This document shows positions 10,979 through 58,248 of a stretch of 64,000 nt of DNA, in pieces. The stretch covers positions 1 to 64,000 of IMG/VR virus record IMGVR_UViG_3300033121_000493. One strand, 5' to 3'. The notes beneath the pieces are model-generated. The model did not search any database. It worked only from the letters and a program-made list of their open reading frames with translations, and was not told the DNA's origin. The stretch's first letter is position 1, and each line of letters starts with the position of its first letter. Source of the DNA: a virus. Its lineage: Duplodnaviria; Caudoviricetes. Made by a program: the position numbers and the translations under genes.

Positions 10979-11263
10979 TTAAAACTCCAAAAGTGTTTTA
11001 CCGACGTACATCTTAACTACGTCCGCCTTCAAGAATACTTTAACCGCCTCTTGAACGTCTGTCGAGGCGGCTATAACAGATTTTACTCCACTTACTATGT
11101 CTCTGCGCTTAGCTGCATTTTTACTGTTGCAGTTACAACCTTTAATTGATTTAGCCTGCGCGGCGTATGTCTCTAGCGCGCTAGACTTAGCCACTATACC
11201 AGCATTTTTAAGCAACGCCATCGCTGTCTGTTCTGTTAATGACACAACGCGCTTGCTGCTCAT
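10979..11263 (-). CDS. Small basic protein with CxC (KGCNCN)
   Basis: Packed ORF with ATGA overlap. Confidence 0.7.
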   Translation of the reverse strand: MSSKRVVSLTEQTAMALLKNAGIVAKSSALETYAAQAKSIKGCNCNSKNAAKRRDIVSGVKSVIAASTDVQEAVKVFLKADVVKMYVGKTLLEF

Positions 11264-12027
11264 ACTGTCTCCTCCGTAATGCTGGTCGGGCCGTTGGCAT
11301 AGGCTTTAAGAGAAGTTGTGTACTGTAAGAAGTCTGCTTTTAGGTTTACCCAGCCAGTATACAACTCTTCAAGATTAACTGATTTAACTTCAAACAAATC
11401 AGCTCTAAAGAACTTTGGAAATGAAACAACGTTAGCCGCGCCAACTGGATAGCTTTCCATATCCGCCAAGCTACAAACACCAATGGGTCTATACATAGCT
11501 TTCGGCTCTATACGGTGATAAAAGATGTCAGTGTCTACGCCAGCACCACCAGCACTAACGCTTAGTACAAAAGAACCACCAGTCATAGTAATAGCCTGGC
11601 GCGTAATGCTGATGTATTTACTATTCGAAGACGAGCTACCGGCTTCACTGTCTAAGTTAACACTAAGTGTTTCTGGTGATTGTAATTCTTCATAATACGT
11701 TAGTGACTGTTGTAATTTGTTTACATCATCTACAAGTAACTGCTGCGCCCGCGCCAGAACGATAGTTGAGCGAAACGACAATGTAGCAGTGTTACTTCTG
11801 TATAGGCCATTTTGGCTACTTGGCGAGGCTGGATACGTCAACATATCCTGCACACTACACACACCTATAAAGCCAGTACTGTCAAAAAGTAGAATGTTAG
11901 CGTCAGGTAGCGCGCTAGCACTACTGCTGCTACTAGCAGCGTTGTCGGTGTTTATTTCTATTTTGAGCTCTGGCCCCATGCTAGACAAGAGATTAGGGTC
12001 AGACACCTCAAACCTAATAATGTACAT
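11260..12027 (-). CDS. Putative virion protein with duplicated domain and two poly-Ser tags
   Basis: Two copies of IGVCS..DM..YP.....(Y/F)R; SSSSS and SSSS runs. Confidence 0.7.
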   Translation of the reverse strand: MYIIRFEVSDPNLLSSMGPELKIEINTDNAASSSSSASALPDANILLFDSTGFIGVCSVQDMLTYPASPSSQNGLYRSNTATLSFRSTIVLARAQQLLVDDVNKLQQSLTYYEELQSPETLSVNLDSEAGSSSSNSKYISITRQAITMTGGSFVLSVSAGGAGVDTDIFYHRIEPKAMYRPIGVCSLADMESYPVGAANVVSFPKFFRADLFEVKSVNLEELYTGWVNLKADFLQYTTSLKAYANGPTSITEETV

Positions 12028-12038
12028 ACTCTACCTCG

Positions 12039-14024
12039 TTAGTGGCTCGACGAGCAGTGACTGTCGGTACGATAACTGATAAACAATCTAGGCTCAGCAC
12101 CTTCTAGCTTTGTAGCGTCACGGCGTGCGCCAGCGTCAGACACGTACTCGCGTAGCCACAGACCAAAGTATTGGCCAGAATCGTAGTTAGACCGATTAAC
12201 GTAGTATTGCAGCAGATCTGTAACATCAAACTCAAACGGCGTCGATGTACCACTTGAAGCGGCTAAACGATCCCAGTTTCTGTTAAGAGTATAAGTCGGG
12301 TCACTGGTTCCAGAGAACGCGCTCATAGTAATTAGCGAGCCGTCGTCATATATGTTACGAACTTGTAGAACAACGTCATCGCCAGTTTCTGCTGTGTGCC
12401 CGCGTAGCTGTAACGACGCTCCAACAATTTCAGCGCAGCGTGGTAGGTCTATTGGGAAACGTAAGAAAGCATCCCAAGTAGTAGTTGCCAACTCGTCTCT
12501 ACCAAACCGTATAAAATCTAGGTCAGTAAATAACGTCAAAACACCATTAGCGTTACGCCTTGTAGCTGCGTCACTGGAATCTGCTAGCAGTACGGTTGTG
12601 GTAAACGCGTACGGATCAACATATGCAGATGACGATGAGCCTTGCGCCACATAATGAGAACTGGAATATTCAACAGGAATAGCGTACGAGCTGGATTGTT
12701 CAAGTACGCTATACGAGCTCGAAGACGACCCAGTAGTTACTGTAGTATTATTAGTTCCAATGACGCTAAACGTAGCACTGCCGCGAGTTATCAAACCCTG
12801 CCCACCGCCCAAATAGCTTAGTTGATTCCCCTCCAGAACAGGCAATCCATATGCTTGCATATCATTAGCAAACACAGCACATTGTCTCTGAACTTCTTGC
12901 CAGACACGGTCTAAGTCGCTCGGCGTACTCGCAGTTATTTCCGCTCTGTTAGTTCTATAGGCGTATGGAAATACGCTACCAGGCGCATCGACTGGTACGT
13001 TCACTAAATCAACTAATCTAGCAACGCGACGAAACGCGTGGTTACGCAGCGTAGATCCAATCACAGGCCTAGCTATCTCGTGCACAAATATTTTGTTATC
13101 GACGCCTGGGCTAGATACACACTCAACAATCATGCGGTGCAAGCCGCCTTGTAGCCCGGTGACAGCTAGCAAATTACCCTGATCTTGCCTCGTTATGGTA
13201 AGGAAGTTTTCAGGCGTAGGAATAACCAAAGACGACAACAATTCGATACACGTATTGCTACCTGGAACAGGCTGACTTACGTTAGCGCCGCCCCAGTAAA
13301 AATCTTGTAATGACGTAACTATTGTTATTGTGCCATGTCGGCCATTACCAGATACGTCTTGTACTAGTGCTGTTGGTGTATACGTACCAGGTAATTCAGT
13401 ACTACCGTCACCTATACGCCACCAACCTTGCAAAGCTCCACTACTGGTATACAGACCAGCGTCTTCGCCGTACAGCAATCCGTGCCCGCTAGCCCACAAC
13501 TCTGTCACTTCATCAGAAGATAGTGCGCTATTCCAAATACCTACTTCGTCTAGCTGGCCATCCCACGATAACGTAGCACCTGTGTTGCCGCTATTTCGTA
13601 TGCCACCTATGAGCAGGTCTGCAGCTACTAGCGATGTACCACTGTAGTTGTGCTGCGCCAACAGTACGCCGTCTACGTATGTAGTAACCTGCATTGGCGA
13701 CAGCTTTACAGACATAACAGCAAAGTGCCAATCGTCGTCGTCTATAAGGACAGCTGCTAGCGTTTCAGCGTTATCTGAAAACTGTTGATTACCGATATAC
13801 GATTTGATATATCTACCGACCGTACCAAGTCCATATTGAAGAATTGAATCTGTTCCACGACCTACGGCTATCTGCGTGCCGCTAGCTGTAGTTTTAAACC
13901 AGACGGCAATAGAGAACTCATTAAACGTTGGAGCAAAGTTAAACGCCGCATGGCTTCCACAAGTTATGTAGTCATGGTTGCTGCTGCTAAATGAGCCTGC
14001 CCAACAATTAGTTAATAGTGCCAT
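12039..14024 (-). CDS. LamG/concanavalin-A-like lectin domain virion protein with C-terminal DNRLRE-like beta-sandwich
   Basis: FSIAVWFKT...DDDWHFAV...YVDG...IGG...GQLDEVGIWNSALS.DEV; C-terminal AFLRF...I..ASLQL...FDVT.L...PRL.I.Y. Confidence 0.8.
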   Translation of the reverse strand: MALLTNCWAGSFSSSNHDYITCGSHAAFNFAPTFNEFSIAVWFKTTASGTQIAVGRGTDSILQYGLGTVGRYIKSYIGNQQFSDNAETLAAVLIDDDDWHFAVMSVKLSPMQVTTYVDGVLLAQHNYSGTSLVAADLLIGGIRNSGNTGATLSWDGQLDEVGIWNSALSSDEVTELWASGHGLLYGEDAGLYTSSGALQGWWRIGDGSTELPGTYTPTALVQDVSGNGRHGTITIVTSLQDFYWGGANVSQPVPGSNTCIELLSSLVIPTPENFLTITRQDQGNLLAVTGLQGGLHRMIVECVSSPGVDNKIFVHEIARPVIGSTLRNHAFRRVARLVDLVNVPVDAPGSVFPYAYRTNRAEITASTPSDLDRVWQEVQRQCAVFANDMQAYGLPVLEGNQLSYLGGGQGLITRGSATFSVIGTNNTTVTTGSSSSSYSVLEQSSSYAIPVEYSSSHYVAQGSSSSAYVDPYAFTTTVLLADSSDAATRRNANGVLTLFTDLDFIRFGRDELATTTWDAFLRFPIDLPRCAEIVGASLQLRGHTAETGDDVVLQVRNIYDDGSLITMSAFSGTSDPTYTLNRNWDRLAASSGTSTPFEFDVTDLLQYYVNRSNYDSGQYFGLWLREYVSDAGARRDATKLEGAEPRLFISYRTDSHCSSSH

Positions 14025-14415
14025 CTATGTTTACCACAACAGTTCGTTTTTGGTTATTAGCCGCTTTGCCTGCGTACACAAGTAACAATCTATTATACTG
14101 AATTTCGTAAATTTCTGTCACTGCCTTCAGTATAGCGGCTAATTCGTCAGTTTTGTTATTATCAGCGAGCCAAAACACTACGCGCGCAAAGTTGTCTATT
14201 ATTTGGCGTTTAGCGTTTTGTACTTTCGCGTACGTGCAGCCAGAGCACTTAGTCTGTGTTTTAACGAATTCTGCCACTTGGGCTAACTGTGCTTTTAGCG
14301 GATTAAACTTAGGGCACTTAGTGTAGAACACGTCCCGACCCAGTAAATCAAACACAGACTCCAGTGTGCACAGGAAGTCGTTACTTTCTACCTGGATGGT
14401 TTTCTGCGAATCCAC
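14008..14415 (-). CDS. Hypothetical protein with CxxC (KCSGCT)
   Basis: Packed ORF. Confidence 0.7.
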   Translation of the reverse strand: MDSQKTIQVESNDFLCTLESVFDLLGRDVFYTKCPKFNPLKAQLAQVAEFVKTQTKCSGCTYAKVQNAKRQIIDNFARVVFWLADNNKTDELAAILKAVTEIYEIQYNRLLLVYAGKAANNQKRTVVVNIDGTIN

Positions 14416-16198
14416 GTCTTGGTGCCTTGCTTATTTCTACGCCGTAGTAATGTTGTACCAAACCAAATCCGCCCTGATGCATAGCAGCGCCCAGCATTAT
14501 GTCGCCACCGTTGTGTCTTAGCCGTACGTCTGGCCAATTCAACGCCTGGATAGCCTCTTTTGTAATCAGCCAGAATCCACCAGTACAAAAATCACTTTTG
14601 GTCATCGGCGGCTTTTTACGGTAATCCAATGGAAACGGTACGCCTTTGTACCACGAAGCGGCTTTAACCCAGTCTTCCTGATTGTCTTTAAAGTGACTGT
14701 ACCAAATATGCCCGTACATATGATTGCCGTTAGGCGCTACGGGCGTAGTTTGTTTGTGCGTTTTGGTTACTACAGCCTCCAACTTATCCATCCAGTCTGG
14801 CTTAGTCACGTAGGAATCGTCATCAAACCACATAATCCAATCTGTAGTAATCGGCTTTTCTGCGTCATAGAACATTTCACGCATCATCGGATACTTAAAC
14901 CGCTGTGGGGTAGCCGTGTACAACTTCTCAAAATTTGGCCTACCAGTAAACCGCTCTGCCATCTTCAGCGTAGCCTGCGATGGCTCGTTAAGCGCTATTC
15001 TAAGCTTAAATTTAGACTCGTCTGTATTTGCGTATATACTCTCAACACAGCGATTAAGCAAAGAGGCGTGATCGCCGTAACCTAATACGCAGACAGTAAC
15101 AGGATATTTGAGCTCACTGCTAGACATAGTAATGACTTCTTTTTTTGGTAACTCTGGTATGACTAGTTTAGCTGTTTGTGGGGTTTCACGCTTTGTATCG
15201 AGGTAGTAGTTAACGGCGTTTACAACGTCATCTACCTTAATAACATCCATACACTTTGGTATTGGCTGTTTGGCAGGATGCTGGATAACGTTTAAACAAT
15301 TACTACGCTGGTCTTTGGGGTCATTTACTTTTGTTTTCCAGCAACCGCCGTGTCGACAGCAGTCTAGTCCGCCGATAGTGTGTAGATACGCATGTGGAGT
15401 AAATGGATGAGGTACGTACGCTGGATCTTTGTCTGCAGACCAGCTATTCCAATCTTTTAATCCCGCAGCGTACCCCATGTTACGTTTAAACGTTTCTTCA
15501 GTGTATGCTTCCCATGTGTAATGCTCCCGCCCGCCAGCTATAACAACCGCAGGCTTGTTTACGGCTGCGGCTAAATGCATAAAACACGTAACTGGAACTA
15601 TTAAACCTTCGGCGTGGAGACACAAGTGCATGGCTTCGCGAAATGACGTTTGTCCTACTAGATTTTTAACGCCGGATAAACTTGTATGTACGTGCTTAGC
15701 TCCACCTGCGTTTGTACCGCCACCAATCTGCACAAAGTTAATCTTATCTGACAGCCGATCAACAACTTCCTGGTAGCGCGCTACGTCCCACCATTTAGTG
15801 ACAAAATCAGTTTTACCACCGGATACAATAATCCAGTAAGGATCACTTATAGGCCGTTTTTGTATTTCGTCTTTAGACCAATGAATATCGGCTCGAAATT
15901 CAGTTAATCGTACCTTCAAGTCTAGACGCTTGTTTAGATCATCTATAAAACCTTGTACAAAATGCAAGCCAGACTGGTTGGACGACTTTATTAGTGGATA
16001 GCCTAACCTAACGTATTTAGATTTTTTCTGTGGGTTGAACTTAGTTACATATGGGTTGTAGTCCCATATAGAAGTAGCTGTCGTTTGTACATTTGTAACA
16101 AACCTATTTGGGTAACAGCGATGTAAATCGCGCAATGCGACTGACATCATCATAATGTCACCGGGAGCCTGATTATTAGACAGCGTTATGTATTCCAA
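14381..16198 (-). CDS. Fused glycosyltransferase: N-terminal GT9 (ADP-heptose heptosyltransferase-like, GT-B) plus C-terminal GT2 (GT-A)
   Basis: PGDIMM...LH..YP...NPYV; KWW; NLVGQTS.RE; MHLAAA..KP.VVI.G; Cys cluster then CM..I..D.V; then VTVCVLGY...L.RCVESI...WFDDD (DxD)...GGFWLI...GDI.L. Confidence 0.85.
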   Translation of the reverse strand: MEYITLSNNQAPGDIMMMSVALRDLHRCYPNRFVTNVQTTATSIWDYNPYVTKFNPQKKSKYVRLGYPLIKSSNQSGLHFVQGFIDDLNKRLDLKVRLTEFRADIHWSKDEIQKRPISDPYWIIVSGGKTDFVTKWWDVARYQEVVDRLSDKINFVQIGGGTNAGGAKHVHTSLSGVKNLVGQTSFREAMHLCLHAEGLIVPVTCFMHLAAAVNKPAVVIAGGREHYTWEAYTEETFKRNMGYAAGLKDWNSWSADKDPAYVPHPFTPHAYLHTIGGLDCCRHGGCWKTKVNDPKDQRSNCLNVIQHPAKQPIPKCMDVIKVDDVVNAVNYYLDTKRETPQTAKLVIPELPKKEVITMSSSELKYPVTVCVLGYGDHASLLNRCVESIYANTDESKFKLRIALNEPSQATLKMAERFTGRPNFEKLYTATPQRFKYPMMREMFYDAEKPITTDWIMWFDDDSYVTKPDWMDKLEAVVTKTHKQTTPVAPNGNHMYGHIWYSHFKDNQEDWVKAASWYKGVPFPLDYRKKPPMTKSDFCTGGFWLITKEAIQALNWPDVRLRHNGGDIMLGAAMHQGGFGLVQHYYGVEISKAPRRGFAENHPGRK

Positions 16199-16761: not shown

Positions 16762-16762
16762 T

Positions 16763-23777: not shown

Positions 23778-25850
23778 CTAGAAAGTTCCACGGTAATGCG
23801 AGCGTTCACCGACATACGCGTCAGCGCCACCTGGTGCGCGTTTAACGCTTATGACGTCACCTACATTAAGTGGGTTAACGTATTGTCCGCCAGTGCCCTG
23901 CTCTTCTTTATTATAGACAGGCTCGTACAGCTTGCTCGACACAGCCGACCATACGCCATTGATATCCATCACAGCGCCCCATGCAGCATATCTGTACGGC
24001 GGCGTAGTACCGGCTCTAGCTTTAATCATACCAAAATCACCGCCGCCACTACCGTTAGGATTTACGTATAGTTTTAGCGTCTCATCAAACGCGCAGTCTC
24101 CGGCGTCTGGGCCGTCTGTCCAGTCCTGTATAGCTTCAGCTCTATACTCTGTTGACGGCAGTGGATCAGCTAGCGCGTTACCAAAATCAGCAATATCAAA
24201 GAACTCTACTTTGGGCGACCGCTTACCGCACGGTATGTACAAACTCATCTGCAAATCTAATTGACAACTTTCGTCAAACTCAGATTTAGTAACACGCCCA
24301 GCCGCATATTTTGCAAAGTCCTCTTTACCAGGAGTAGCAAAGTATCCCAGGTTTTGATTTACAACTATAGTGCCAGTTGGTAACTGGTCGTAGTAAGGAT
24401 GTAGCGACGCGTCTTCAGTGCCATACTTGTCTTTGTACTGTTGGTTTCTATCTTTTAGTACCAAGCTATCTTGTTCGTATAGAAACAAGCTACGTCCAGT
24501 AAACGCTGGATCAAACGACAGTGAGCTATGTGCGCCACCAGTAGGACACGGTAGGTTCAGCGCTAAATCCAAAATAGGCACGCACGGCGTAGCGTTTCCA
24601 CGATCATTTTTACCGTATTCCAATACTATTTGTGCTGTCGGCTGGCCAAATGCCCACTGCCTGACTGGCGTCGAAGTTACGCTTAGCGATCCCTTAAAGA
24701 AATTGTTATCCACAAACGTTACGTTTGCATCATCAGAGCTAGATCCTTGTACGCCGATACGTATCTGAATAGGACACGGCAAGTCTAAACTAATATCCAG
24801 GTTAGGCGCGCACGTATCTATATTAGACGACGAGTCGCGCTTGTAGGTAACAGCTAATCCGGCAGTCGGCGTAATAGCCCACTCATATCTGTTCGACGCG
24901 CCGTATGTAATGTTGTCGTTACTGGAATCCGTGCCCGATGTAATATTGAGTGGGCATCCAGTCTGTAACTCTAGTACTAACTCGGGATTACAATCCAAAG
25001 CACACGAAGACGACGTTGTATTAACGCCAAACGTACCTGTTACAGTTTGTCTGTATTCTGGTATGTACTTTGTCTTTAATACTGGCTGCCGCCATACAAC
25101 AGGACAAGGAATATCAAGATTGAGTTTTATGTTGGTTTGGCAGCCAGCGCCGCTAGAGCTTCCTTCACTGGAGGTAATAGCAAACGCTAACTTTGGTAGT
25201 CGCGAGTCTGGTATAGCGGCATTACAAGCTATACCGTTACTGCTGCTACTCCCTAGCGGCTGATTAACTGTAGCTTTAGCAGTAACGACCGTTGGACACG
25301 GTAATTCAAGATCAAACGACAAAGCCAAGTCACACGAATCTGGCACCTTTGACGCTTGTACGCCCAGCGATCCGGACGTGCCTGGAGAAAATTTAACGCG
25401 ACCGCCAGACCCTACAATATCCGTAGGACATGGAATACCAATACTTAGGCTAAGCCCAAGATCGCACGAGTTATTTGTAGCCGCTATATTCGCCGTCGTA
25501 CTAGTCAGTAATGGGTCAAAATTAACGTCGGCATGGGCCGTAGTAAACGACACAAAGCAAGGCACAAATATATCAAGTTGAATGTCTGGTTCACACGGAT
25601 CGCCCGACGGGTAAGTTACAGAAACGCCGACAGAGCCGTCTACTGGAGTTTCTGGATCATCTGGACCGTGGAATGAGCCAGTAACATTTAGCGGATAACA
25701 GCCCTGATCTACGGGCGGTATAGGTATAGGAATATCTAGCGGCGTAACAATAGGGCTTGGCGGTTGTGGTATCTCACAATCGTCAACGAAGTTATACGAG
25801 CCTATAGCCGCTACGCTTGGCGCACATGATTTTTCAAATGCTCTACTCAT
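23778..25850 (-). CDS. C-x11-C repeat fibre-like protein
   Basis: Eight C-x11-C repeats with alternating hydrophobics; five SSS runs. Confidence 0.7.
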   Translation of the reverse strand: MSRAFEKSCAPSVAAIGSYNFVDDCEIPQPPSPIVTPLDIPIPIPPVDQGCYPLNVTGSFHGPDDPETPVDGSVGVSVTYPSGDPCEPDIQLDIFVPCFVSFTTAHADVNFDPLLTSTTANIAATNNSCDLGLSLSIGIPCPTDIVGSGGRVKFSPGTSGSLGVQASKVPDSCDLALSFDLELPCPTVVTAKATVNQPLGSSSSNGIACNAAIPDSRLPKLAFAITSSEGSSSGAGCQTNIKLNLDIPCPVVWRQPVLKTKYIPEYRQTVTGTFGVNTTSSSCALDCNPELVLELQTGCPLNITSGTDSSNDNITYGASNRYEWAITPTAGLAVTYKRDSSSNIDTCAPNLDISLDLPCPIQIRIGVQGSSSDDANVTFVDNNFFKGSLSVTSTPVRQWAFGQPTAQIVLEYGKNDRGNATPCVPILDLALNLPCPTGGAHSSLSFDPAFTGRSLFLYEQDSLVLKDRNQQYKDKYGTEDASLHPYYDQLPTGTIVVNQNLGYFATPGKEDFAKYAAGRVTKSEFDESCQLDLQMSLYIPCGKRSPKVEFFDIADFGNALADPLPSTEYRAEAIQDWTDGPDAGDCAFDETLKLYVNPNGSGGGDFGMIKARAGTTPPYRYAAWGAVMDINGVWSAVSSKLYEPVYNKEEQGTGGQYVNPLNVGDVISVKRAPGGADAYVGERSHYRGTF

Positions 25851-25878: not shown

Positions 25879-26835
25879 TTATGAACTTGAACTTGACTGC
25901 TGCTGAACTGTATTACACGCGTCTAGCTCTGGTCGACTACGTATAGTTATGGTGTTCAATCCACTAACAATCTCTACACCACGCCCTGCGATTAGATTAA
26001 ACACACCAGTTGTAGTCGGCTCAACGCCGTTTATGTTTGATATGACTTCGTTACATCTGACCGCGCAGTCCAAAGGTTCACCGTTTGCCAGCTTGGCGAC
26101 TTCAGCAGCGGTACGCGGTATCTCGGTGCACGCTTCACCGGCACCAGATCCTTTTATTGCTGAAAACCGTAAAGCGTTGCTACCTACTAGCGTAGCAATA
26201 GTACAGTTGTAACCTTCGCTAAATGCTATATCGCCTATTATGTTTTCGCCGTGTGGGGCTATGATATAGCTACCGTCATTGCTCACGCCGACGCCGCTGC
26301 TACTAGTTTGGCACGCCGTTGATAGCGTTCGCGGCTCGTTGGCTATAGTCACGTTTTCTACGTAGTGGCCTTTTAGTACCTGCACACATCGCCGTTCAAT
26401 CCAAGGATAATTATCCGGCGTAGAATCAATGCTTGATTTATTAGAAACTAGATTACTGTTCAGCGCGTAATTTGAACTTAAGCCAAATACAACAAACCCA
26501 TAACCAAGAACTTTACCGGCTTTAATCAATTGGAATGATTTTATAGAGAAGTCTGCGGTTGAATCTGCGCGCACTACATACGTCCCATCTACTAGAGACC
26601 CAGGCGCTTTGACGTACAACTCAATGTTTGGCACGTTTGTATCGTACCCAAATCCGCTTATGTAAACTCTATGAGTGTTATTGTCTGGGTCATATCCAGA
26701 TTTGGCCAATAGAACAACAGTAATATCAACTAGCATATCAGTGTACGGCAGTACACTAGAAGAAAACGTGTACCGCTCATCCAGTAAAGGATAGCGCCGG
26801 TACAGATTTAGATTGTAAAAATCAGTATCAGCCAT
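25879..26835 (-). CDS. Fibre/baseplate paralog array member (N.N..R.YP family)
   Basis: DFYNLNLYRRYPL; GDIAFSEGYN; ISNINGVEP...G.F.L; C-terminal SSSSS. Confidence 0.7.
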   Translation of the reverse strand: MADTDFYNLNLYRRYPLLDERYTFSSSVLPYTDMLVDITVVLLAKSGYDPDNNTHRVYISGFGYDTNVPNIELYVKAPGSLVDGTYVVRADSTADFSIKSFQLIKAGKVLGYGFVVFGLSSNYALNSNLVSNKSSIDSTPDNYPWIERRCVQVLKGHYVENVTIANEPRTLSTACQTSSSGVGVSNDGSYIIAPHGENIIGDIAFSEGYNCTIATLVGSNALRFSAIKGSGAGEACTEIPRTAAEVAKLANGEPLDCAVRCNEVISNINGVEPTTTGVFNLIAGRGVEIVSGLNTITIRSRPELDACNTVQQQSSSSS

Positions 26836-27658
26836 TGATAAACCCAACAATCAAGCCGTTGTCTGTAACAGTAATACGTAACGCCGGGCGCGCAGGTGAG
26901 TCAGCGTCTTTTTTCACTGACAACTTTATACCGCCAACAGCGTTAGGTCTAACAATATCGCCATCAAATTTTAAGCCAAGCAGCTGGTTATTGGCGTAAC
27001 TTAGTACGCCCTCAGCTTCACACGCTCTTCTTACAAACAGTGGATCGCCGACTATATCTACACGTATTGTTGTTGTGCCTATTTCGTTACTAGACGAGCT
27101 CTCTGTGTCGACGACAGTCAACTGTACTCCACGCTCACCTACCAGCACAACCTCGTCATTAACGCCTGTACCGTCACTTAGTATAAATTTTCTTACGCCG
27201 CTTTGTGGCTGTGGTACTACAACAGTTGCAGCCAATCGTGTCTGTGTTGGTAAAAAGCTGTAAGTCCCATCTGGCCATGAACATAGCTTAGCCAGTCCTA
27301 TATTGTCACTGACGCTTTCGCCACTTGTCAAACTTGTTCCAGCTGTACCTGGGTTGGCTTGCATCAAACCTAAATACGTATTAGACTGCCAAAAATGAAT
27401 GGTGTCAGGTGGGTTAGAGCGTTCGAAAGTTGCATATCCTAGATCGCCGCGACTGCTGGCAAGCACTATCTGAACAGTCGCGGCGATCGTTATTTTACTG
27501 ATGTAAACATCTAGTGTCCCATTTGGAACAAACACCCTAGCGTCAACAAATACGTCATTATCAATAGTTACCGTATTGTTTGTACGCGCCACGCTGGCGT
27601 CAAACGGATACGCCTGATTAATAGCGTCATCATAATAGCTAGGGTGAATTACAAGCAT
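26828..27658 (-). CDS. Fibre/baseplate paralog array member
   Basis: YYDDAINQAYPFD; FVDARV; RL.ATVV.P; VVLVGERGVQL. Confidence 0.7.
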   Translation of the reverse strand: MLVIHPSYYDDAINQAYPFDASVARTNNTVTIDNDVFVDARVFVPNGTLDVYISKITIAATVQIVLASSRGDLGYATFERSNPPDTIHFWQSNTYLGLMQANPGTAGTSLTSGESVSDNIGLAKLCSWPDGTYSFLPTQTRLAATVVVPQPQSGVRKFILSDGTGVNDEVVLVGERGVQLTVVDTESSSSNEIGTTTIRVDIVGDPLFVRRACEAEGVLSYANNQLLGLKFDGDIVRPNAVGGIKLSVKKDADSPARPALRITVTDNGLIVGFING

Positions 27659-28210: not shown

Positions 28211-30778
28211 CTATACGTCGAGCCAGTGACACTTGTCAGGTACAACTATATCACTGTCTACAGGCGAGACAGTTAGTTCTGCTGCCAGTGCTTCACCTCC
28301 ATATACGTATAGTCCAGGCGGTCCATCGGCAAACTGAGACGTAGATACTGATACACCATTCCACTCACTCTTGCCGACAACAGTATAGTCTGGCGACATA
28401 GCGTCTACATAAATGCGTTTGTGAGCTGTCTGCGACGACGAAGACAATTCAACAGCCGTAGGATCAATCCACGATTTTACTGAATACGGCGCTGGTCCAC
28501 TTACCTGTACAACTAGCCTGTGCCAGTTGTATGACCAGTCCGGATCTGTAATACCAGATATAGGTATCCAACTCTGGATTTGAAAGTTATGCCCTATATA
28601 GTGCATACCGTAAGAAATACGGCGGTTCAGTAAGTCAATCATTATAGCCCAGAACTTGTCTCCAGAATCTTCCTGCCAGCCTAGCATTAATCCAACTTTA
28701 GGGCTGCCACTGACATACCTAAACGCAGCAGATATCAAATAGTTGTTTACAACACTGTTCTCACATTTCAGTATTGCGTACTTGTGATCAACCGTGTTCA
28801 GAAATTGTAGATACTGGTGGGTATATACTAGTGAGCCGTTAACGTCAGCAGATACTTGTTTAGGTACTATTGCGTCTACACTACCAGCATATCTAAGTTG
28901 GTTAATCGCCCGCGTTACACCAAAATCATTAGACCACCCGTCGGCTGGTACGTAGTCTAATTTGTACGGTGCGCGGTTGTCAGTTGTAAAGTTATCGTCA
29001 TTGCACTCCTGCTCTACTAAATCTCCAGTTAAGGCAACGGACTTAAAGTACGCTGTAACAACTGGCATCGCAGCCACTGGTGCCGCAGTATTGTCTGTAC
29101 GTACGCCAAAGCCAATAAACGTTATGTTGGCAAAGTCAACCGGCTGGCCCGTGTACGCGCTGGTATCAAAACTAACCGTAGCCGTTGTACCATTGTAGCG
29201 CGCTACGATGTCATATAGGTCTGGGCCAGTTCCCGTTTTAGTTATTGTAATGCCTAATTGCTCTTGCAACTCAACAGCGCCGCTTGACGAGTGGTGCGTA
29301 GTAACTGAAGACGATTGCAACGTAAGCACATCGCCAAAGTAGCTGGTACTAATTGGGAAAGACGACCACGCACTTCCATATAGCACGTCAAACGACAACA
29401 CAACTTTAAATTGCCCGCTCTCTTCACGCGAGTAATTGGCACGTATACGCCATTTAGTTGTGTCTGCGTCTTCTGATTCTTTTGCAGATGCTTCCAGTAT
29501 TACGTTGTAACTAGCCGAATCACCATACTCTAATTGTTCTAAGTCTGTAATAAGTAAGTCGTAATACGTGTCCATACTTACAGAGTTACCAACTGCGGAC
29601 AAATCTGCTCTGTACTTATTGGACTTAAACAATCTAATGTTATCCGTTACGCTATTACGCGGAAACGGCACTTCAAACTGGCTGTTACGTAATTTCAGCG
29701 CTGTTGTACTATTGAATGCGTCTAGCGCCGTAACATTCCAGTTTTGTATGTACGTGCTGCCTGTACCGGCAAATGCAACCCAGTCATTTAACTCAAGAGC
29801 ATCGTCGAACATGTAAGTTTTACTTACAGGTACGCTTGACGACATACCAACCGCAGACGAGCTATACCCAACAGCAGATGAACTTGTGTGCGGCTGGGGT
29901 TCAGGGTGAGTTTGCGGATAACACAAATCGTCATACGTAGTTGGGAACGCGGCTGTCTTAGTACATATGTCATCAAAACTTACAGGCGTATCCAGCTGAA
30001 CACCAACCAACTCCGACGATACAATTTCAGTACTGCCTGTAATGATGCCAGAAGAGTCATCTACAATTAGTGTAATAATGCCATACAGGTCTGGATCTAC
30101 GTCATTTATTCTTCTTATTGGTTGGCGGTCACAAGTATTACTTTCAGGTCTATTACCGCATGGACCAGCAAACGTAGCGTACAGATCTGGCAAATTACTT
30201 TTAGCTAATCCAAACACTATACAGTCTTTTACAGTGCCCTCTATATTACGCTTCTCGTATGTGATTTCTATATTCTGACCACCCAGCAGCCCAACGTTGT
30301 TCACTAGCTTAGTTACTGCATTTGCTTTGCTTATAGATGAAACAGGCAATGACTCGTACGCTTGAGCTACTCGCGGTAATAGAGTGCTATTGCTTGCAGT
30401 ACTAAACAGCCACGTACTTACTGGTTGTGCAACGTTTGTTACATCGCCAAAGGCTACCCAGCCACTCGCACCAGGAACTATGGGAATAAGCGGATAGCTG
30501 GCATATTTAGTATACGGCCTAGTTACAGTGAACACGCCAATGGGCGTTACGTCATTTGTGTCCGAGACAGCGCATACGGTCAATGTTATGTAGTACTGAC
30601 TAATAGTCAGCGCGGATAGATAAGCCTTTTTTCCGTAATGATCTGGCCACCATATATGTATATCGTTAATTACAAACTCAGGCAATCTGTTTCCAGAGTC
30701 TGCAATTAAAGACGCTGTATCCACAAACGGATAAGCTCTTGTTTCGTTTAAGTTACCTGGCGTATTGTTTAAACTCAT
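28211..30778 (-). CDS. Fibre/baseplate paralog array member with C-terminal lectin-like domains
   Basis: NLNETRAYPF; VGLLGGQNIEI; IRRINDVDP..YG.I.L; SSSAVGYSSSAVGMSSS linker. Confidence 0.7.
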   Translation of the reverse strand: MSLNNTPGNLNETRAYPFVDTASLIADSGNRLPEFVINDIHIWWPDHYGKKAYLSALTISQYYITLTVCAVSDTNDVTPIGVFTVTRPYTKYASYPLIPIVPGASGWVAFGDVTNVAQPVSTWLFSTASNSTLLPRVAQAYESLPVSSISKANAVTKLVNNVGLLGGQNIEITYEKRNIEGTVKDCIVFGLAKSNLPDLYATFAGPCGNRPESNTCDRQPIRRINDVDPDLYGIITLIVDDSSGIITGSTEIVSSELVGVQLDTPVSFDDICTKTAAFPTTYDDLCYPQTHPEPQPHTSSSAVGYSSSAVGMSSSVPVSKTYMFDDALELNDWVAFAGTGSTYIQNWNVTALDAFNSTTALKLRNSQFEVPFPRNSVTDNIRLFKSNKYRADLSAVGNSVSMDTYYDLLITDLEQLEYGDSASYNVILEASAKESEDADTTKWRIRANYSREESGQFKVVLSFDVLYGSAWSSFPISTSYFGDVLTLQSSSVTTHHSSSGAVELQEQLGITITKTGTGPDLYDIVARYNGTTATVSFDTSAYTGQPVDFANITFIGFGVRTDNTAAPVAAMPVVTAYFKSVALTGDLVEQECNDDNFTTDNRAPYKLDYVPADGWSNDFGVTRAINQLRYAGSVDAIVPKQVSADVNGSLVYTHQYLQFLNTVDHKYAILKCENSVVNNYLISAAFRYVSGSPKVGLMLGWQEDSGDKFWAIMIDLLNRRISYGMHYIGHNFQIQSWIPISGITDPDWSYNWHRLVVQVSGPAPYSVKSWIDPTAVELSSSSQTAHKRIYVDAMSPDYTVVGKSEWNGVSVSTSQFADGPPGLYVYGGEALAAELTVSPVDSDIVVPDKCHWLDV

Positions 30779-33089: not shown

Positions 33090-34868
33090 TTAGCTCGCTC
33101 GTATTGTTCCGTATATGTTCACAATAGCCAACTCGCCAGCGTAGGAGTCTGAAGCACTTCTACCAATCTTAGCTAATACAATCTGGTTGCTATCAATACT
33201 TATGGTACTAGCCAGCACAGAGAAGTATGCTCCAGCGTCTTTTGCACCTAGCGTTTCCAAAGACAGATTTTCGTTGGAGCTCCAAGACGTTGGTAGTATG
33301 CGATCACCACCGCTGGACGACGACAGCCCATCAGCCGAGTCAATAATCATGTTGGCTATATATGTGTTTGCTGGTGGCGTGCCTGCGCCTGGAGTTGCAA
33401 CCCATAGAACTATATCCAGCACTGGGTTTGGAATCGATATATCAGGTATTCTAAATTTGACTGTGAAAGAAGTATTTCTTCCTTTTGGCAACCCGATATA
33501 CGGCAGAGCATACGCATACAGACTTTCAGTAGCCCCATCCAGCGCTACAACTTCTGGACTGATTTTTCTTGTTACTGCTGTAGGATCAACGCCAGTAACA
33601 GTAACTCTTCCAGCTTTATAGCCGGACGTAAGACTACGCGTACCAGTTACTTCAATAAGTCCATCGCCTTTAATACCCTCTACAACATAGCCGCGCTGTA
33701 ATGCGGAATTACCAGTCACGCTTTTTACTACAGCGTCGCCTTCATTGTTTTCAGCGTTAGTCCAGTTAAGGTCTAGATCAAGCGTAACACGTGATGCGCA
33801 ATAGCCACTAACGTCAGGATCTGTACAACCAGTAACAACAATTGGAGAATCCGTCGCTGGACGAATACCAGTCACGGCCGCTTGACTAGTCTTGGCTACC
33901 ATTTTGGTAAACCATATAGTCATTGTTCTTGCTATATCAGGGCAGTTAGCCACAGAGGACGAATCGTACGGTAGCGCGCTAGAGCTGCCACAAGACGTTC
34001 TCCACGGCGTGTGATCAATACAACTGGACAACCACCATATACCGTTTTCATCTACAAGCATTAGTTCTGGCGAGACGCCAACACCATTGAGCTCTACGTA
34101 TGCTGAGCCAACCGGCTGTGGTGGCCACACAGAAGCCAACGTTGCGTCTTTAGTCCAGTTGTAGCCGAACACTGCACCTCTAGGAGCTAAGCTTTGGAAT
34201 ATGGAATCATTAGCAGGTAGCCAGCCAAGTTTAGTGTTGTCTGCGTTAGAAATAGTAACCGTATCGCCCACACAAGCAGTATCACCTGCAGGGTTGGTCG
34301 CTAGATCAAACTTGTAATGGATATGTTCTTCCAGTACTTCACGTGGCGTAGGGGATACAAAGACGTCTGTTCCCATAACGGCGCAGACGTATATACCTAC
34401 GGCTGGTCTGCTCTTCGTTAGCTTACCCGCGTGCGTAGACGACAAGTAATAGTGGCCTGCTGTTAATGGGGTATTGGATTCGTCGTTAATCGTCAGGTTT
34501 CTAAAGAACCCATTAACCAATATATCTGCCGTGGATGTCGACAGTTTGCGTATGACAATACCACGTACGTACGCAGAATCTGCCGTACGCAGTTGACCCG
34601 TGTCGGAATCTACAGCCGACGCTATGGCTTGCTTGTACAGCTCTTTACTGAAATTCCAGTAAACCGCGTCACCAACATTGACAGCAGAGTCAATAGGTGC
34701 AGCGTAGACAACAACGCCCTCACCACGCGCATCGTTGTCTAGCCGTTCTTTCAGATACTCTGTACGTTCAGCCAACTCCTGTAGTGGCTTGTTAGTAACA
34801 ATAGCATCTACGGAGTCTGTTACATTTTTGATTAACGTTATATGTTTTCGCCAGTTAGCGCTCATCAT
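33090..34868 (-). CDS. Tail fibre-like protein
   Basis: NKPLQELAERTEYLK fibre N-terminal motif; VGDAVY...GIV...YYLS...G.LT..RP beta module. Confidence 0.65.
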   Translation of the reverse strand: MMSANWRKHITLIKNVTDSVDAIVTNKPLQELAERTEYLKERLDNDARGEGVVVYAAPIDSAVNVGDAVYWNFSKELYKQAIASAVDSDTGQLRTADSAYVRGIVIRKLSTSTADILVNGFFRNLTINDESNTPLTAGHYYLSSTHAGKLTKSRPAVGIYVCAVMGTDVFVSPTPREVLEEHIHYKFDLATNPAGDTACVGDTVTISNADNTKLGWLPANDSIFQSLAPRGAVFGYNWTKDATLASVWPPQPVGSAYVELNGVGVSPELMLVDENGIWWLSSCIDHTPWRTSCGSSSALPYDSSSVANCPDIARTMTIWFTKMVAKTSQAAVTGIRPATDSPIVVTGCTDPDVSGYCASRVTLDLDLNWTNAENNEGDAVVKSVTGNSALQRGYVVEGIKGDGLIEVTGTRSLTSGYKAGRVTVTGVDPTAVTRKISPEVVALDGATESLYAYALPYIGLPKGRNTSFTVKFRIPDISIPNPVLDIVLWVATPGAGTPPANTYIANMIIDSADGLSSSSGGDRILPTSWSSNENLSLETLGAKDAGAYFSVLASTISIDSNQIVLAKIGRSASDSYAGELAIVNIYGTIRAS

Positions 34869-40395: not shown

Positions 40396-40396
40396 A

Positions 40397-55086: not shown

Positions 55087-55225
55087 GATTTATCTCCGTG
55101 TCTTTACTAAGCATCTTATTGATGTCTTCTAGTGTAGGCGCAGGAAAATTAACCAAGCTTAAAGAAGGTATTAGCTTCTTTTTTTTAGGCGTCAGAGATT
55201 TCTTTGGTGCGCTTTCTTCTAGCAC
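55061..55225 (-). CDS. 54-aa basic peptide (absent from the ORF track)
   Basis: GTG start; MLEESAPKKSLTPKKKKLIPSLSLVNFPAPTLEDINKMLSKDTEINRGWTIRRR; fills the gap. Confidence 0.45.
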   Translation of the reverse strand: MLEESAPKKSLTPKKKKLIPSLSLVNFPAPTLEDINKMLSKDTEINRGWTIRRR

Positions 55226-55449
55226 AGTTCGTCCTTTGTCACTTCTATAAACGCTGGAGCTACTTCGGTCGCTTCTACAGCTACAGACTCGTATGCCAGC
55301 AACCTACCAGTGATACGCACGGGACGGTTATTGTCTACTTCATTTAGATCAGTTGTAAACATCTTTAGATCAGTTATTTCCAGCTGCGTCTCTACGCCAT
55401 CTGGAGCTACGATAATAACACTATAGATTTCTGGGCTGGTCTGGTCCAT
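55219..55449 (-). CDS. Small acidic hypothetical protein
   Basis: AGGA SD; packed. Confidence 0.65.
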   Translation of the reverse strand: MDQTSPEIYSVIIVAPDGVETQLEITDLKMFTTDLNEVDNNRPVRITGRLLAYESVAVEATEVAPAFIEVTKDELC

Positions 55450-55459
55450 TGTAATTTCC

Positions 55460-56302
55460 TTAACTGCTAGACGACTCGTCCGTAAGAGGCACGTTATAAA
55501 CAGAGTTATCCGGCTCTATGAGCTTTAGCTCTACCATCCATACAAGGGGTTTTCCTCTAACAGATGCCATCTCTTTCTTACCTTGTATAAACCACCGTTC
55601 GCCTGTCTCTGGAGCTACCCACACATCTCGTGATGTTAGATATGGGCAAGCTACGCCTTTCGCGTATATAGATCTGTCTGCAATAGTTCCTCTAGGCTCA
55701 ACGACAGTTTCTTTATGCTCACGTGGGGCTAGCTCAAGTAACAAAGGCATCGCCGGATAATAACCACCGACAAAACCAGTACCGTAACACACAGTACAGT
55801 TACTGTTTGTCGGCTCGCCAGTACCAAAATCTATGCAGTTAGTACACTCCGTTCCCCACGTTTTTCTGATCAGCAATTTTCCTTGGCTACCTACATATCT
55901 ATTCAATAGCATGAACTCTCTACGTACTATTTCTTTAGCTAGCAAATAGTCGTGTCTATTTAAGCTTCCAGTGCCTTCGACGTATGAGCTGTAGTACATG
56001 TTGGTATCTACTACAAGCTTAACTCTATACACGCTGTGCTTTGTTTTAGAGTAGATACGCCGCGCTGAATCCACTAATAAGTTTCCAGCAGTAGGGCCAG
56101 CAACTTGAATGAATGTAGCTGTGGGACTTTCAGCCCACTCTAAATAGAATTGAGGCGTAGTATTAAACTTCATGTAACGACGATCAATTTTCCAGGATAC
56201 TACAGAACCTCCCAATATGTCTACGTCAACAAGAACACGTTCAAACACACGATCGTGTTCATTAACACCTATTGGTTGTTTTGTAAGCCCGCCTGATGCC
56301 AT
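55460..56302 (-). CDS. Neck/head-closure protein with zinc ribbon
   Basis: G.ECTNC.D......NCTVCYGTGFVGGY; synteny; C-terminal DESSSS. Confidence 0.65.
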   Translation of the reverse strand: MASGGLTKQPIGVNEHDRVFERVLVDVDILGGSVVSWKIDRRYMKFNTTPQFYLEWAESPTATFIQVAGPTAGNLLVDSARRIYSKTKHSVYRVKLVVDTNMYYSSYVEGTGSLNRHDYLLAKEIVRREFMLLNRYVGSQGKLLIRKTWGTECTNCIDFGTGEPTNSNCTVCYGTGFVGGYYPAMPLLLELAPREHKETVVEPRGTIADRSIYAKGVACPYLTSRDVWVAPETGERWFIQGKKEMASVRGKPLVWMVELKLIEPDNSVYNVPLTDESSSS

Positions 56303-56304
56303 TG

Positions 56305-56484: not shown

Positions 56485-57348
56485 TTACCACATCCTCCAT
56501 CTATATGCGGATCTGCCAACAGACTTGAATCCGGCTTTCATATTCATACCGATTCTAGTTTGTTGCGCCCATAGTCTATACTGCTCTTCCAATCTGATAC
56601 CAATTTCAGCGTACTCTCTTGCTTTCTCTTGATCAGCAATAGTAACGCCACCACTAGAGTATTGTAGCGCGTTACGTCTGTATCTAAAAGCTATCATCTG
56701 CAGAAGAATACCAACTGTACCATTTATCCAATTAGCTCTATACGGAAAATTGTTATACGCATATGCGCCAACAGGCGGTGGCATTTCATTGTACATATCA
56801 ACAGCTTTTCGCATAGCGTGTACTATCTCATTGTCAGTAAACTCTAGTTCATCCAACAAGTAGTTGGCCCCTGGGCATACGTCCATGAGCTCCATTCTTA
56901 CTTCTGGCACTGTCAACGTAGCGTTCGAGTCCAGTGCGCTGAAGTTGTTTGGCATTATTTCCAAATATACTAGCTGCTGGAATACTAACTTATCACCTCT
57001 GAATATACCGATAGATCCTGTAAACATCCCAGAGTTGGTTGTTTCTGCTGTAGTGAACTTTATTTCTACCGTGCCCTCAGTGCCGTCTATGATAGTGCAG
57101 TCAATTGTGAATATGTTCTGTGACCCTAGCGTATTAGCAACTGCAAATTTAACTGATACTGTGTTGTCTGCTGACGATGAAGACCCAAGCCCATCAACAT
57201 CTGCACCTATTGAAGTTATGTCTATAGCTTCATTATCGTCATTTTTTATCTGATACTGGTACAGCACTGTTTGGCCCTGTGACAACCGTACAACAGGCGT
57301 GCCAGCATTACACGATGTTCTGTAGTATTGGCTATTGTCGAAAGGCAT
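56485..57348 (-). CDS. Head-tail adaptor with N-terminal BppU-like beta-sandwich
   Basis: VR..L.D....N.LLD..EF.D.EI...YN..PP...RN.LQYS.GG.TI; start reassigned to MPFDN (57348) behind GGAG. Confidence 0.6.
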   Translation of the reverse strand: MPFDNSQYYRTSCNAGTPVVRLSQGQTVLYQYQIKNDDNEAIDITSIGADVDGLGSSSSADNTVSVKFAVANTLGSQNIFTIDCTIIDGTEGTVEIKFTTAETTNSGMFTGSIGIFRGDKLVFQQLVYLEIMPNNFSALDSNATLTVPEVRMELMDVCPGANYLLDELEFTDNEIVHAMRKAVDMYNEMPPPVGAYAYNNFPYRANWINGTVGILLQMIAFRYRRNALQYSSGGVTIADQEKAREYAEIGIRLEEQYRLWAQQTRIGMNMKAGFKSVGRSAYRWRMW

Positions 57349-57361
57349 ACGATTCTCCAAT

Positions 57362-57399
57362 AAAAAAGGGGCGGCGGTATCAATATACCAACCGCCCCT
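57362..57399 (-). terminator. Rho-independent terminator
   Basis: Minus strand GGGGCGG..GGTAT-ATTG-ATACC.CCGCCCC-TTTTTT. Confidence 0.85.
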
Positions 57400-57423
57400 C
57401 CCCCGGAACGAATAGCCCTTAGC

Positions 57424-57699
57424 TTACACGTAAGCAGACGACGATTCATCATACGTCTGGCCACACGTGGCATCCGGCGAATCAATGACTGCCAGATAGC
57501 CGTTGTCTACCAGCGCGTTAAAAGTATTGATAGCGCGAATGCCACCAATACCAGGATACTTCGCTGTCAGATAAGCGTAAACATTACCTGGAATATCGTA
57601 GGTCTCATTCTTATCGAGCGTGACACCAAACAACGCCAGAGTAAATTCGCTGTCCGACGCATTAGCGATGCGCGTAACATTACAGGCAGCAGCTGCCAT
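57424..57699 (-). CDS. Small putative head decoration protein
   Basis: Strong SD; followed by a terminator; ends DESSSAYV. Confidence 0.6.
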   Translation of the reverse strand: MAAAACNVTRIANASDSEFTLALFGVTLDKNETYDIPGNVYAYLTAKYPGIGGIRAINTFNALVDNGYLAVIDSPDATCGQTYDESSSAYV

Positions 57700-57711
57700 A
57701 TTAAATCCCCT

Positions 57712-58248
57712 TTATGACGAGTGCCTTTCGGCGATAATTACTTTTGAACCACTACCTAACCCAGTGTACACCGCAGCTTTATACCGACCGGCTGGTAGAT
57801 CAGTAAACATATATGCTATGGACTTATTGTCCACCTTATACGACGCTCCAGTTACAACCGGCCCTTCTAACTTCAGCAATGCCCAAGTCGAAGCTTGTGG
57901 GTAGCTTAGCGTACTATCAGGATCGCTAGGGGAATTAAGACTATTGCTGGAGCTAGAGTCGGTAAAAGAATTTAATTCCCCACCTAGCGTAACTTCCAGC
58001 CACAATGCAATCTTTGCGTCACCAGCGAGTGTTCCAGACTGTAATATTGCCACAATCAAAAGATCTTGGCCTCTTCCAATCTCAGTTTCACTTTCACCGA
58101 TACCAATAGTGGTGTCGAGAATAGCACCGTCGGCAACGCTACTGGCGTCAGTAATATTGCTGGTTTGTACATGAAGACCGCGTAGGCCGCTCATGTATCC
58201 CCAGTTATTAGGTGACTGCTTGCCATAACCCTTAACGATATTAGACAT
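57712..58248 (-). CDS. Putative virion beta-sandwich protein
   Basis: Downstream of MCP; internal DSSSSNS loop. Confidence 0.6.
   Translation of the reverse strand: MSNIVKGYGKQSPNNWGYMSGLRGLHVQTSNITDASSVADGAILDTTIGIGESETEIGRGQDLLIVAILQSGTLAGDAKIALWLEVTLGGELNSFTDSSSSNSLNSPSDPDSTLSYPQASTWALLKLEGPVVTGASYKVDNKSIAYMFTDLPAGRYKAAVYTGLGSGSKVIIAERHSS

Follow-up and report, generated by a model that had tools for sequence, protein, structure and literature searches.

Conserved serine runs in late-module proteins of an uncultured large phage, and a candidate glycosyltransferase–substrate cassette beside them

Introduction

Short runs of serine recur in the late-module proteins of the phage recorded as IMG/VR virus IMGVR_UViG_3300033121_000493, and the locus raises the question of what these runs are for, and whether a glycosyltransferase (GT) encoded in the same module acts on them. 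The stretch analysed, hereafter the window, covers the first 64 kb of a virus record that consists of one contig of 202,582 bp (genome G000); its open reading frames (ORFs) were called mechanically, and the long ones all lie on the minus strand. The original prediction regarded the runs as a portable acceptor tag, through which a TibC/Aah-like enzyme would place a glycan coat on the particle. The observations that bear on this idea are the enrichment of the runs, the selection on them, their location, the fold of the enzyme and the adjacency of its gene to that of a serine-terminal protein. We hold it probable, though only modestly so, that phage-encoded GTs O-glycosylate virion proteins in the cytoplasm at these runs, with a cassette made of the GT and its neighbour, a protein with a GT-adjacent domain (GAD), and with a tag that has spread in this lineage.

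A megablast search with a 20-kb query gives zero matches among cultured phages and thus finds no close cultured relative. Over half its length, the tail sheath shares only 28–31% identity with the sheaths of Salmonella phage Arash and of the Vibrio phages D181, D148 and D69, and several late proteins are distant homologues of Arash proteins annotated as structural. Most late proteins have no match in PHROGs and Pfam searches.

Results

Enrichment of serine runs in the late module

A run is taken as a maximal stretch of at least three identical residues, with the expectation derived from shuffles of each protein. The 44 minus-strand ORFs between positions 10168 and 58248 contain 39 serine runs, against 9.6 ± 3.0 expected from shuffles that ignore local disorder (z 9.8), and none of 500 shuffles reaches the observed count. 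Because the orthologous modules of tag-poor relatives have run counts close to expectation, they provide a good empirical baseline despite the disorder-blind shuffling. The runs, referred to below also as tags, are distributed over 20 of the 44 ORFs, close to the roughly 35–40 runs in about 18 late proteins counted originally, and every example quoted at that time is found in place with its mixed TCN/AGY codons. The comparison with composition-shuffled proteins, which had been proposed as a check, bears the enrichment out. Furthermore, the excess is specific to serine, with the other residues of the late module at expectation (observed/expected: Ala 13/9.6, Thr 7/7.5, Gly 10/8.2). Across the window, 29, 9 and 3 runs have lengths of three, four and five residues, respectively, and many of them are terminal. 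Two SSS runs in a plus-strand ORF of 58 aa (55074-55250) are not tags; the ORF is almost certainly a spurious antisense one.

The distribution of the runs can be read against the following landmarks.

39646-40428, minus strand: sigma-factor-like gene amid the tail/baseplate module (PHROG 351; homologue of Arash gp10)
51636-54428, minus strand: tail sheath, 930 aa (PHROG 279, E 4e-12)
58655-59590: major capsid protein (MCP)
61747-63081: prohead protease

Zero serine runs occur in the ORFs of 1–10.1 kb or in those of 58.2–64 kb, the latter including the MCP and the protease, and the tube protein and the 1195-aa tape-measure protein are also without them; the recount thereby agrees with the absences that had been noted, including that from the accessory genes of 1–9.3 kb. 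Elsewhere in the 202.6-kb genome, over some 140 kb, runs stay at background level, with about 20 in about 45,000 aa.

In the coding frame there are 39 runs where 9.0 are expected, and the other five frames are at expectation. Since the excess is confined to the coding frame, it is a feature of the proteins rather than of the DNA, and the frame test together with the mixed TCN/AGY codons rules out a DNA-level or microsatellite origin. No flanking consensus exists around the runs beyond a mild excess of Gly, Asp and Glu at position –1 and of Ala and Asn at position +1. With regard to codon usage between 10168 and 58248, TCG accounts for 30% (40/132) of the serine codons inside runs and 13% outside, and AGT for 11% inside and 23% outside. 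No tRNA-Ser is encoded by the phage.

Conservation of the runs between relatives

The baseline for run conservation is the comparison with G001, an IMG/VR relative available as a whole genome of 216.5 kb, which is about 40% identical to G000, shares 86 reciprocal best hits with it and has a GT that is 50% identical. At this distance, the numbers of serine runs per orthologue are nearly equal in the two genomes (6/6, 6/7, 3/3, 2/2, 1/1 etc.), and 21 of the 33 late-module runs face a serine run at the aligned place in G001. The kept runs usually lie within otherwise unalignable, indel-rich segments or at C-termini. In non-structural proteins, none of seven runs has an aligned serine run in G001. 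Counted by residue, 67% of the run serines (77/115) are kept, compared with 26.5% of the other serines of the same proteins, and the flanks are 34% identical; counted by triplet, 20 of 47 SSS triplets are kept, compared with 11.3% of all triplets, and none of eight in non-structural proteins. Simultaneously, the codon family (TCN or AGY) is switched in 23 of the 77 kept serines, and such a switch, being unreachable by one synonymous step, counts toward selection at the protein level. With a third close genome added (G031), 12 of 22 core-protein runs are kept in all available close relatives. Judged from these alignments, the serine runs are under purifying selection at the protein level.

The runs that are not kept number about 6–10, equal to the chance expectation. 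About 6–10 of the runs are ordinary background, among them those at residue 359 in the GT linker, in the sigma-like ORF (39646-40428), at 247 in p931, at 132 in p558b, at 598 in the sheath and at 30 in p323, none of which is kept in the close relatives. Two of these, the sigma-factor and GT-linker runs, had already been set aside as probable background, and neither is kept.

These comparisons bear directly on whether the runs are a neutral by-product of mutation, slippage or composition, an explanation that is largely excluded and to which we attach very little probability. Some runs are indeed unkept (four of five in 23778-25850), and the preference for TCG in runs (30%, compared with 13% outside) might point to a mutational origin; however, the positional conservation at about 40% identity, the codon-family switching and the frame specificity all speak against neutrality, as do the lack of excess in non-structural genes and the mixed codons, which rule out microsatellites.

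Location of the runs in the late proteins

Where they can be mapped, the runs lie in flexible linkers, loops and termini, and many are insertions when set against homologues, which agrees with the original expectation of exposed loops inserted relative to homologues. The proteins concerned are as follows; GAD assignments rest on a hidden Markov model (HMM).

11260..12027, minus strand: protein with two tandem GAD domains (~48-137 and ~136-245; GAD HMM, family alignment), an S5 run (32-36) just before the first and an S4 run (131-134) at the junction, both kept in G001
12039..14024, minus strand: fibre-like protein with a LamG/ConA-like domain (16-173; Pfam PF13385, E 1.4e-14), one GAD (~270-398; GAD HMM, i-E 1e-8), a four-run cluster (433-466) and a C-terminal CSSSH
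23778..25850, minus strand: 690-aa fibre-like protein with five runs, one of them kept in G001
25879..26850, minus strand: 323-aa protein whose C-terminus reads QQQSSSSS, with a further run inside at 183
26828..27658, minus strand: 276-aa protein with SSSS at 187, which G001 and G031 retain and which is half gap in tag-poor orthologues
28211..30778, minus strand: 855-aa tail/baseplate protein with six runs (299, 306, 313, 489, 497, 779)
33090..34868, minus strand: 592-aa conserved baseplate/tail protein (p592) with tags at 295-297 and 303-305 in an interdomain linker and at 516-519 in a loop
35409..37085, minus strand: 558-aa baseplate protein with SSS at 354, a distant homologue of Arash structural protein gp14
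55460..56302, minus strand: 280-aa neck-region protein ending DESSSS, a homologue of Arash structural protein gp234
56485..57360, minus strand: 291-aa neck-region protein; its SSSS at 60 lies in a loop whose length varies
57424..58248, minus strand: two small proteins, each with a run that G001 retains, one of 91 aa ending DESSSAYV and one of 178 aa with SSSS at 98

In the LamG protein, five of the six runs are kept in G001. In p592, G001 and G031 both retain the three runs; the AlphaFold2 (AF2) model, built on a 20-row alignment, predicts residues 295-311 with a predicted local distance difference test score (pLDDT) below 50 and residues 510-532 as coil with a pLDDT of about 56. The linker of p592 is serine-rich across 25 genomes, ranging from SxSxSS up to S13-S15 (G017, G022, G024), and the 516 loop is inserted in the close trio only. 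In the 855-aa protein, runs 489, 497 and 779 are kept in G001, and run 306 recurs in five of ten tag-rich relatives. For the 323-aa protein, run 183 is kept in G031, and C-terminal serine tails exist in three of nine tag-rich relatives.

The SSS at 354 of the 558-aa baseplate protein, kept in G001 and G031, is situated in an insertion, where tag-poor orthologues mostly show a gap (fraction 0.89). Similarly, the SSS at 402 of the sheath is located in a lineage-specific insertion, kept in G001, G031 and three of ten tag-rich relatives, and faces a gap in all tag-poor orthologues. Orthologues of the 280-aa neck-region protein carry C-terminal serine tails in G001, G031, G023, G022, G017 and G019, and have different or no tails in the other relatives; altogether, four proteins in the window have serine-tail C-termini. 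In the 291-aa neck-region protein, a serine run occurs at the same loop in eight of nine tag-rich and three of eight tag-poor relatives. Overall, 27% of run residues face gaps in tag-poor orthologues, compared with 13% of other residues.

The five runs of the 690-aa fibre-like protein appear weakly constrained, because one of the five is kept in G001. Four of the five have a Cys 0–5 residues on (SSSSNGIAC, SSSGAGC, SSSCALDC, SSSNIDTC), a sequence pattern that suggests repeated Cys-containing modules.

Such locations also fit another explanation, in which the runs are unmodified, flexible, hydrophilic spacers. As short polyserine linkers and tails they would keep multi-domain tail proteins mobile or soluble, and the GT would act on something unrelated. 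We consider this unlikely. In its favour, the runs lie in indel-rich linkers, loops and termini and vary in length between relatives (the p592 linker from SxSxSS to S15), polyserine linkers occur in bacterial carbohydrate-active enzymes (mentioned in PMC2386152), and nine GT-bearing genomes do without an excess of runs, as described below. However, the enrichment is restricted to serine, and the usual linker residues Gly, Thr and Ala are not enriched; C-terminal tails of 3–5 residues link nothing; and the non-structural multi-domain proteins of the same genome have no runs. Spacers would also leave unaccounted for the adjacency of the GT to a GAD protein with serine termini.

A GT9-fold enzyme in the tail-fibre module

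The enzyme and the small ORF that follows it are encoded as follows.

14381..16198, minus strand: fusion GT with a GT9-fold domain (1-337) and a GT-A/GT2-like domain (362-605) (Pfam, AF2)
14008..14415, minus strand: 135-aa ORF between the GT and the LamG protein, overlapping the GT stop, without a serine run; it belongs to a small conserved family and clusters with same-position ORFs in G016, G025, G027 and G031

Pfam Glyco_transf_9 (PF01075) matches residues 75-235 of the enzyme above its gathering threshold of 22 bits (52.5 bits, E 5.5e-14; 54.4 bits in a six-frame search), and the match to Glycos_transf_2 is below threshold. The AF2 model (pLDDT 91.7) contains a complete GT-B domain, a disordered linker (338-358) and a GT-A domain, and its two-lobed GT-B fold superposes on solved GT9 enzymes. 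The GT9+GT2 gene first noticed inside the late module thus encodes a bona fide cytoplasmic fusion of a GT9-fold and a GT-A domain and is, as the clade comparison indicates, a fixed part of the tail-fibre module. Within the GT9 half, G13-D14 are at least 90% conserved in 35 homologues, and residue 1 of the model aligns near TibC residue 96; D14 is a candidate counterpart of the N-terminal catalytic Asp of GT9 enzymes (WaaC D13 / TibC D110). Behind the C-lobe stands an invariant or near-invariant His/Cys cluster (H269, H273, C280, C281, C286, C301, C316), and DDD459-461 in the second half is invariant among homologues. No signal peptide or transmembrane helix was noted in the enzyme. This GT9-fold enzyme may work like a protein O-glycosyltransferase.

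In the relatives, the GT9 half with its Cys/His cluster is constant, and the C-terminal GT-A domain is replaced by unrelated sequence, encoded separately or missing (G017, G019, G021, G023, G025, G027 and G028), so that the protein lengths range from 323 to 721 aa. A constant GT9 half alone is what is expected for an enzyme whose first domain primes and whose second provides a variable extension.

Compared with the GT9-type lipopolysaccharide (LPS) heptosyltransferases WaaC, WaaF and WaaQ, the phage enzyme remains far below the equivalog cut-offs (37 bits against 467). Unlike those enzymes, it is phage-encoded, situated in a late fibre module, fused to a GT-A domain and furnished with the Cys/His cluster; moreover, it is not obvious what a lytic jumbo phage would gain from making LPS core late in infection.

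The GT-adjacent domain and its serine termini

The GAD family comprises the proteins encoded directly downstream of the GT and is defined by a domain of about 150 aa. It has no Pfam, PHROG or PDB sequence match, and a profile search against PDB sequences gives nothing credible. More than 500 metagenomic homologues of the enzyme exist, many of them on contigs of about 200 kb; from IMG/VR, 154 enzyme matches were confirmed and 80 loci kept. The GAD HMM finds the domain just downstream in 73 of 79 GT loci, the six misses being mostly short contigs, and 59 of 60 distinct GAD proteins lie within 2.5 kb of the GT, many within 50 bp; these adjacency figures come from related, non-independent sequences.

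One or both termini are rich in serine in most GAD proteins. In 37 of 60 of them (62%), an SSS stands no more than 15 residues from an end, compared with 39 of 1231 other ORFs of the same loci (3.2%), which corresponds to an odds ratio of 49 (Fisher p 1e-34). At least four serines in a terminal 15-mer are found in 46 of 60 GAD proteins (77%), compared with 9.6% of the other ORFs. The tail is N-terminal, C-terminal or both, depending on the lineage, and the members without SSS mostly have alternating S-x-S tails. N-terminal tails hinge on the choice of start codon; 23 of the 60 proteins have the run C-terminally and are unaffected.

In the window, the GAD is restricted to 11260-12027 (two copies) and to the LamG protein (one copy, followed by the four-run cluster). 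Outside the clade, Arash gp16 (OQ632216.1 17713-18075, L171; annotated as structural), at the equivalent end of the tail module, gives a weak GAD match (E 7.6e-4) and has no serine-rich termini. Meanwhile, tag-poor genomes of the clade keep the serine tail of the GAD protein: G005 and G010 end with ...STSSSN/I, and G025 with ...ESSSEVL. Retention of this tail would explain why such genomes retain the GT. The adjacency of GT and GAD together with the serine termini provides stronger evidence for an enzyme–substrate link than does the genome-wide number of tags, and in its gene arrangement and protein sequences the pair looks like a conserved enzyme–substrate cassette.

Enzyme and tags across the clade

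Twenty-five genomes were compared, by the whole modules of 23 together with the same stretch from G000 and G001. The GT is situated between fibre genes, 17–47 kb from the sheath and on the same strand, with conserved gene order between, in 23 of 27 mapped clade genomes; in the other four, a linear record is cut between the GT and the sheath. Although their sheaths are only 35–60% identical, 25 genomes all have the GT in this position by the fibre genes.

A strong excess of serine runs (z 7–15) exists in G000, G001, G031, G008, G023, G021 and G022, and a moderate excess in nine further genomes of the 25. The other nine (G005, G006, G010, G012, G015, G018, G019, G025 and G028) have no excess despite an intact GT, so that the presence of the enzyme alone does not predict tags. 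Across the 25 genomes, runs of Thr and Gly are not consistently enriched (z >3 in two, for Gly), and Ala runs are mildly enriched in some. The tags are scattered unevenly over the two major branches of the sheath tree, and beyond close kinship the serine excess follows no module gene. Arash and D181, which have no GT9 gene, show no excess (observed/expected 9/6.8 and 5/4.8). Accordingly, the proposed test of co-occurrence between tags and GT turns out to be non-discriminating, the GT being universal in the clade, and tags are not equally present in relatives that lack it: with two outgroups as the basis, tags are never seen without the GT, whereas the GT is often seen without a genome-wide excess.

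The most serine-rich fibre proteins of the relatives adjoin the GT, namely a 667-aa protein in G008 (46% Ser), a 568-aa protein in G030 and an 802-aa protein in G029. In the module of G008 (ORFs 8442-13584, L112), three consecutive proteins by the GT contain 22–46% Ser. The 667-aa protein consists largely of SSSVP/SSSAP/SSSxS repeats with 85 runs, and the sister genome G029 has instead the single 802-aa protein with 10 runs.

Other glycosyltransferases of the phage

Outside the window, a GT island (G000 137500-149000; L098, L099) is common to G001 only, and contains or adjoins the following genes.

136715-137539: ThyX
137567-138337, 138826-139719 and 145514-146227: GT2-like genes
139812-140453: weak GmhA-like SIS protein
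140915-141655: dTMP-kinase-like gene
142154-143017: GT9-like gene
143837-144877, 146246-147184 and 147821-148753: GT4-like genes

The island may function in glycan synthesis or in DNA modification. It introduces a further explanation, in which the serines are modified by others, either by the island GTs, by host enzymes or through phosphorylation or acylation, and the module GT serves only its neighbour protein or a non-protein acceptor. We regard this as improbable. In its support, three GT2-like, three GT4-like and one more GT9-like gene with a weak GmhA-like gene stand outside the window, the island is common to the equally tag-rich G001, and the module GT is present in tag-poor genomes. 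Yet the island genes are missing from the other tag-rich members of the clade, no protein kinase domain was found in the phage, and the position beside ThyX and the dTMP-kinase-like gene fits nucleotide or DNA modification equally well.

Discussion

If the serine runs are acceptor sites, the process could run as follows. The constant N-terminal GT9-fold domain would start the glycan by linking a sugar to serines of disordered segments (tails, loops, linkers), from a host-supplied nucleotide sugar that might be ADP-heptose, and the exchangeable C-terminal GT-A domain would lengthen the glycan. As the ancestral substrate throughout the clade we propose the downstream GAD protein with its serine-rich termini, represented in this phage by the protein at 11260-12027 and by the GAD fused into the LamG fibre protein (12039-14024). 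In this lineage, about ten more proteins of the tail, baseplate, sheath and neck would have acquired the tag, and glycans would coat the particle on its tail side. The action of the enzyme on run serines, the sugar used and the role of the coat are what we infer from the pattern. Extended to the clade of ~200-kb phages, the proposal is that a two-gene cassette (a GT9-fold priming GT with an exchangeable second GT domain, and a small serine-terminal virion protein) has given rise, in several lineages including the present one, to a portable, minimal glycosylation tag of at least three serines in a disordered segment, copied onto a dozen tail, sheath, baseplate and neck proteins and producing a glycan-coated tail. 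Neither such a tag nor such a tail is known to have been described; this wider proposal is offered tentatively, at slightly short of an even chance.

Several points weigh against the acceptor-site reading, among them the identity of the enzyme. TibC is a GT-B enzyme that O-heptosylates serine and requires its N-terminal β-barrel (residues 1-97) for activity (PMC4358343); like Aah, it belongs to the bacterial autotransporter heptosyltransferases (BAHT; PDB 4RAP/4RB4). The phage enzyme scores 20 bits against a cut-off of 200 with the corresponding model, NCBIfam TIGR04414 hepto_Aah_TibC, below four LPS heptosyltransferase models, and its predicted structure opens with the GT-B N-lobe, the alignment to TibC starting at residue 96, so that the β-barrel is missing. 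In fold similarity, TibC is tied with WaaF, WaaC and 3tov, and neither Foldseek nor VIA separates TibC from the LPS enzymes. Since the family model fails and the β-barrel is lacking, the enzyme cannot be filed as BAHT, and it is not demonstrably TibC/Aah-like. Moreover, the phage contains no HldE-type domain and, for heptose supply, only a weak GmhA-like ORF (NF001628 E 1.1e-4, cut-off 265 bits); at least seven further GT genes elsewhere in the phage could be the real actors or serve DNA modification; neither the second small GT9-like gene nor the number of GT2/GT4 genes tracks the serine excess; and the nine GT-bearing genomes without excess, the non-independence of the adjacency statistics and the dependence of N-terminal tails on start codons all count on the same side. 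The notion of a portable acceptor tag with a glycan coat hence survives in part: the tags are enriched, virion-specific, selected and placed at flexible sites, with no excess in two relatives that lack the GT, but the enzyme is not demonstrably of the kind proposed and nine of 25 GT-bearing genomes have no excess.

Relative to the known systems, the locus shares some features and differs in others. As in BAHT systems, where the enzyme gene stands beside that of its substrate, the phage GT adjoins the gene of its presumed substrate, the GAD protein, in 73 of 79 loci. BAHT enzymes have a four-Cys iron finger after or within the C-lobe, for which the conserved His/Cys cluster behind the C-lobe of the phage GT is at most a candidate counterpart. 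The BAHT enzyme possesses a β-barrel, whereas the phage GT lacks it and is fused to a GT-A domain; likewise, the BAHT acceptors are serines in a folded autotransporter β-helix, served by a ring-shaped dodecameric enzyme, whereas the phage acceptors would be disordered serine runs on particle proteins.

Glycosylation of phage virions is itself already known. Phage-encoded O-glycosylation is reported for mycobacteriophage virions (Che8 and relatives; Freeman 2023, pmid 37329881), as cited in PMC13445384 and PMC12582341; that case is shown by experiment and concerns the capsid, whereas here the capsid and tube are without tags. As in mycobacteriophages, structural proteins of the phage would be modified within the host by GTs that the phage itself encodes, and the GT gene lies within or beside the structural operon (23 of 27 mapped genomes). 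Compared with mycobacteriophages, the present phage would use short serine runs on tail, baseplate, sheath, neck and fibre proteins and a GT9-type enzyme. The tail tube of a mycobacteriophage is reportedly glycosylated as well.

Serine-rich repeat adhesins, which are glycosylated by GtfA/GtfB, and the polyserine linkers of bacterial glycoside hydrolases resemble the present case in that serine-dominated low-complexity segments serve as O-glycosylation substrates or as spacers. However, they consist of long repeats (tens to hundreds of residues) in secreted bacterial proteins, with GT4-type or no known enzymes, whereas the phage runs have mostly 3–5 residues and belong to cytoplasmically assembled proteins. 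Polyserine linkers are long, near-pure serine tracts between folded domains, and the runs in the window are of another kind; the p592 linker becomes comparable in relatives alone (S13-S15). Full-text literature searches found no description of serine-run tags combined with phage glycosyltransferases, which accords with the original remark that no tag-based, virion-wide system of this kind was known to have been described. The GT–GAD cassette is the most testable element of the locus.

Very few examples of glycosylated phage particles are known. If the proposal is correct, tail-side glycan coats would be widespread in a large uncultured phage clade, given the more than 500 homologues of the enzyme, and a puzzling conserved compositional signal would be explained. 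Such coats would bear on the ways in which phages resist proteases, stick to surfaces or evade recognition. The pairing of the enzyme with its neighbour makes the idea testable by co-expression without culturing the phage, and a minimal tag and enzyme pair would be reusable for protein glycosylation in bacteria.

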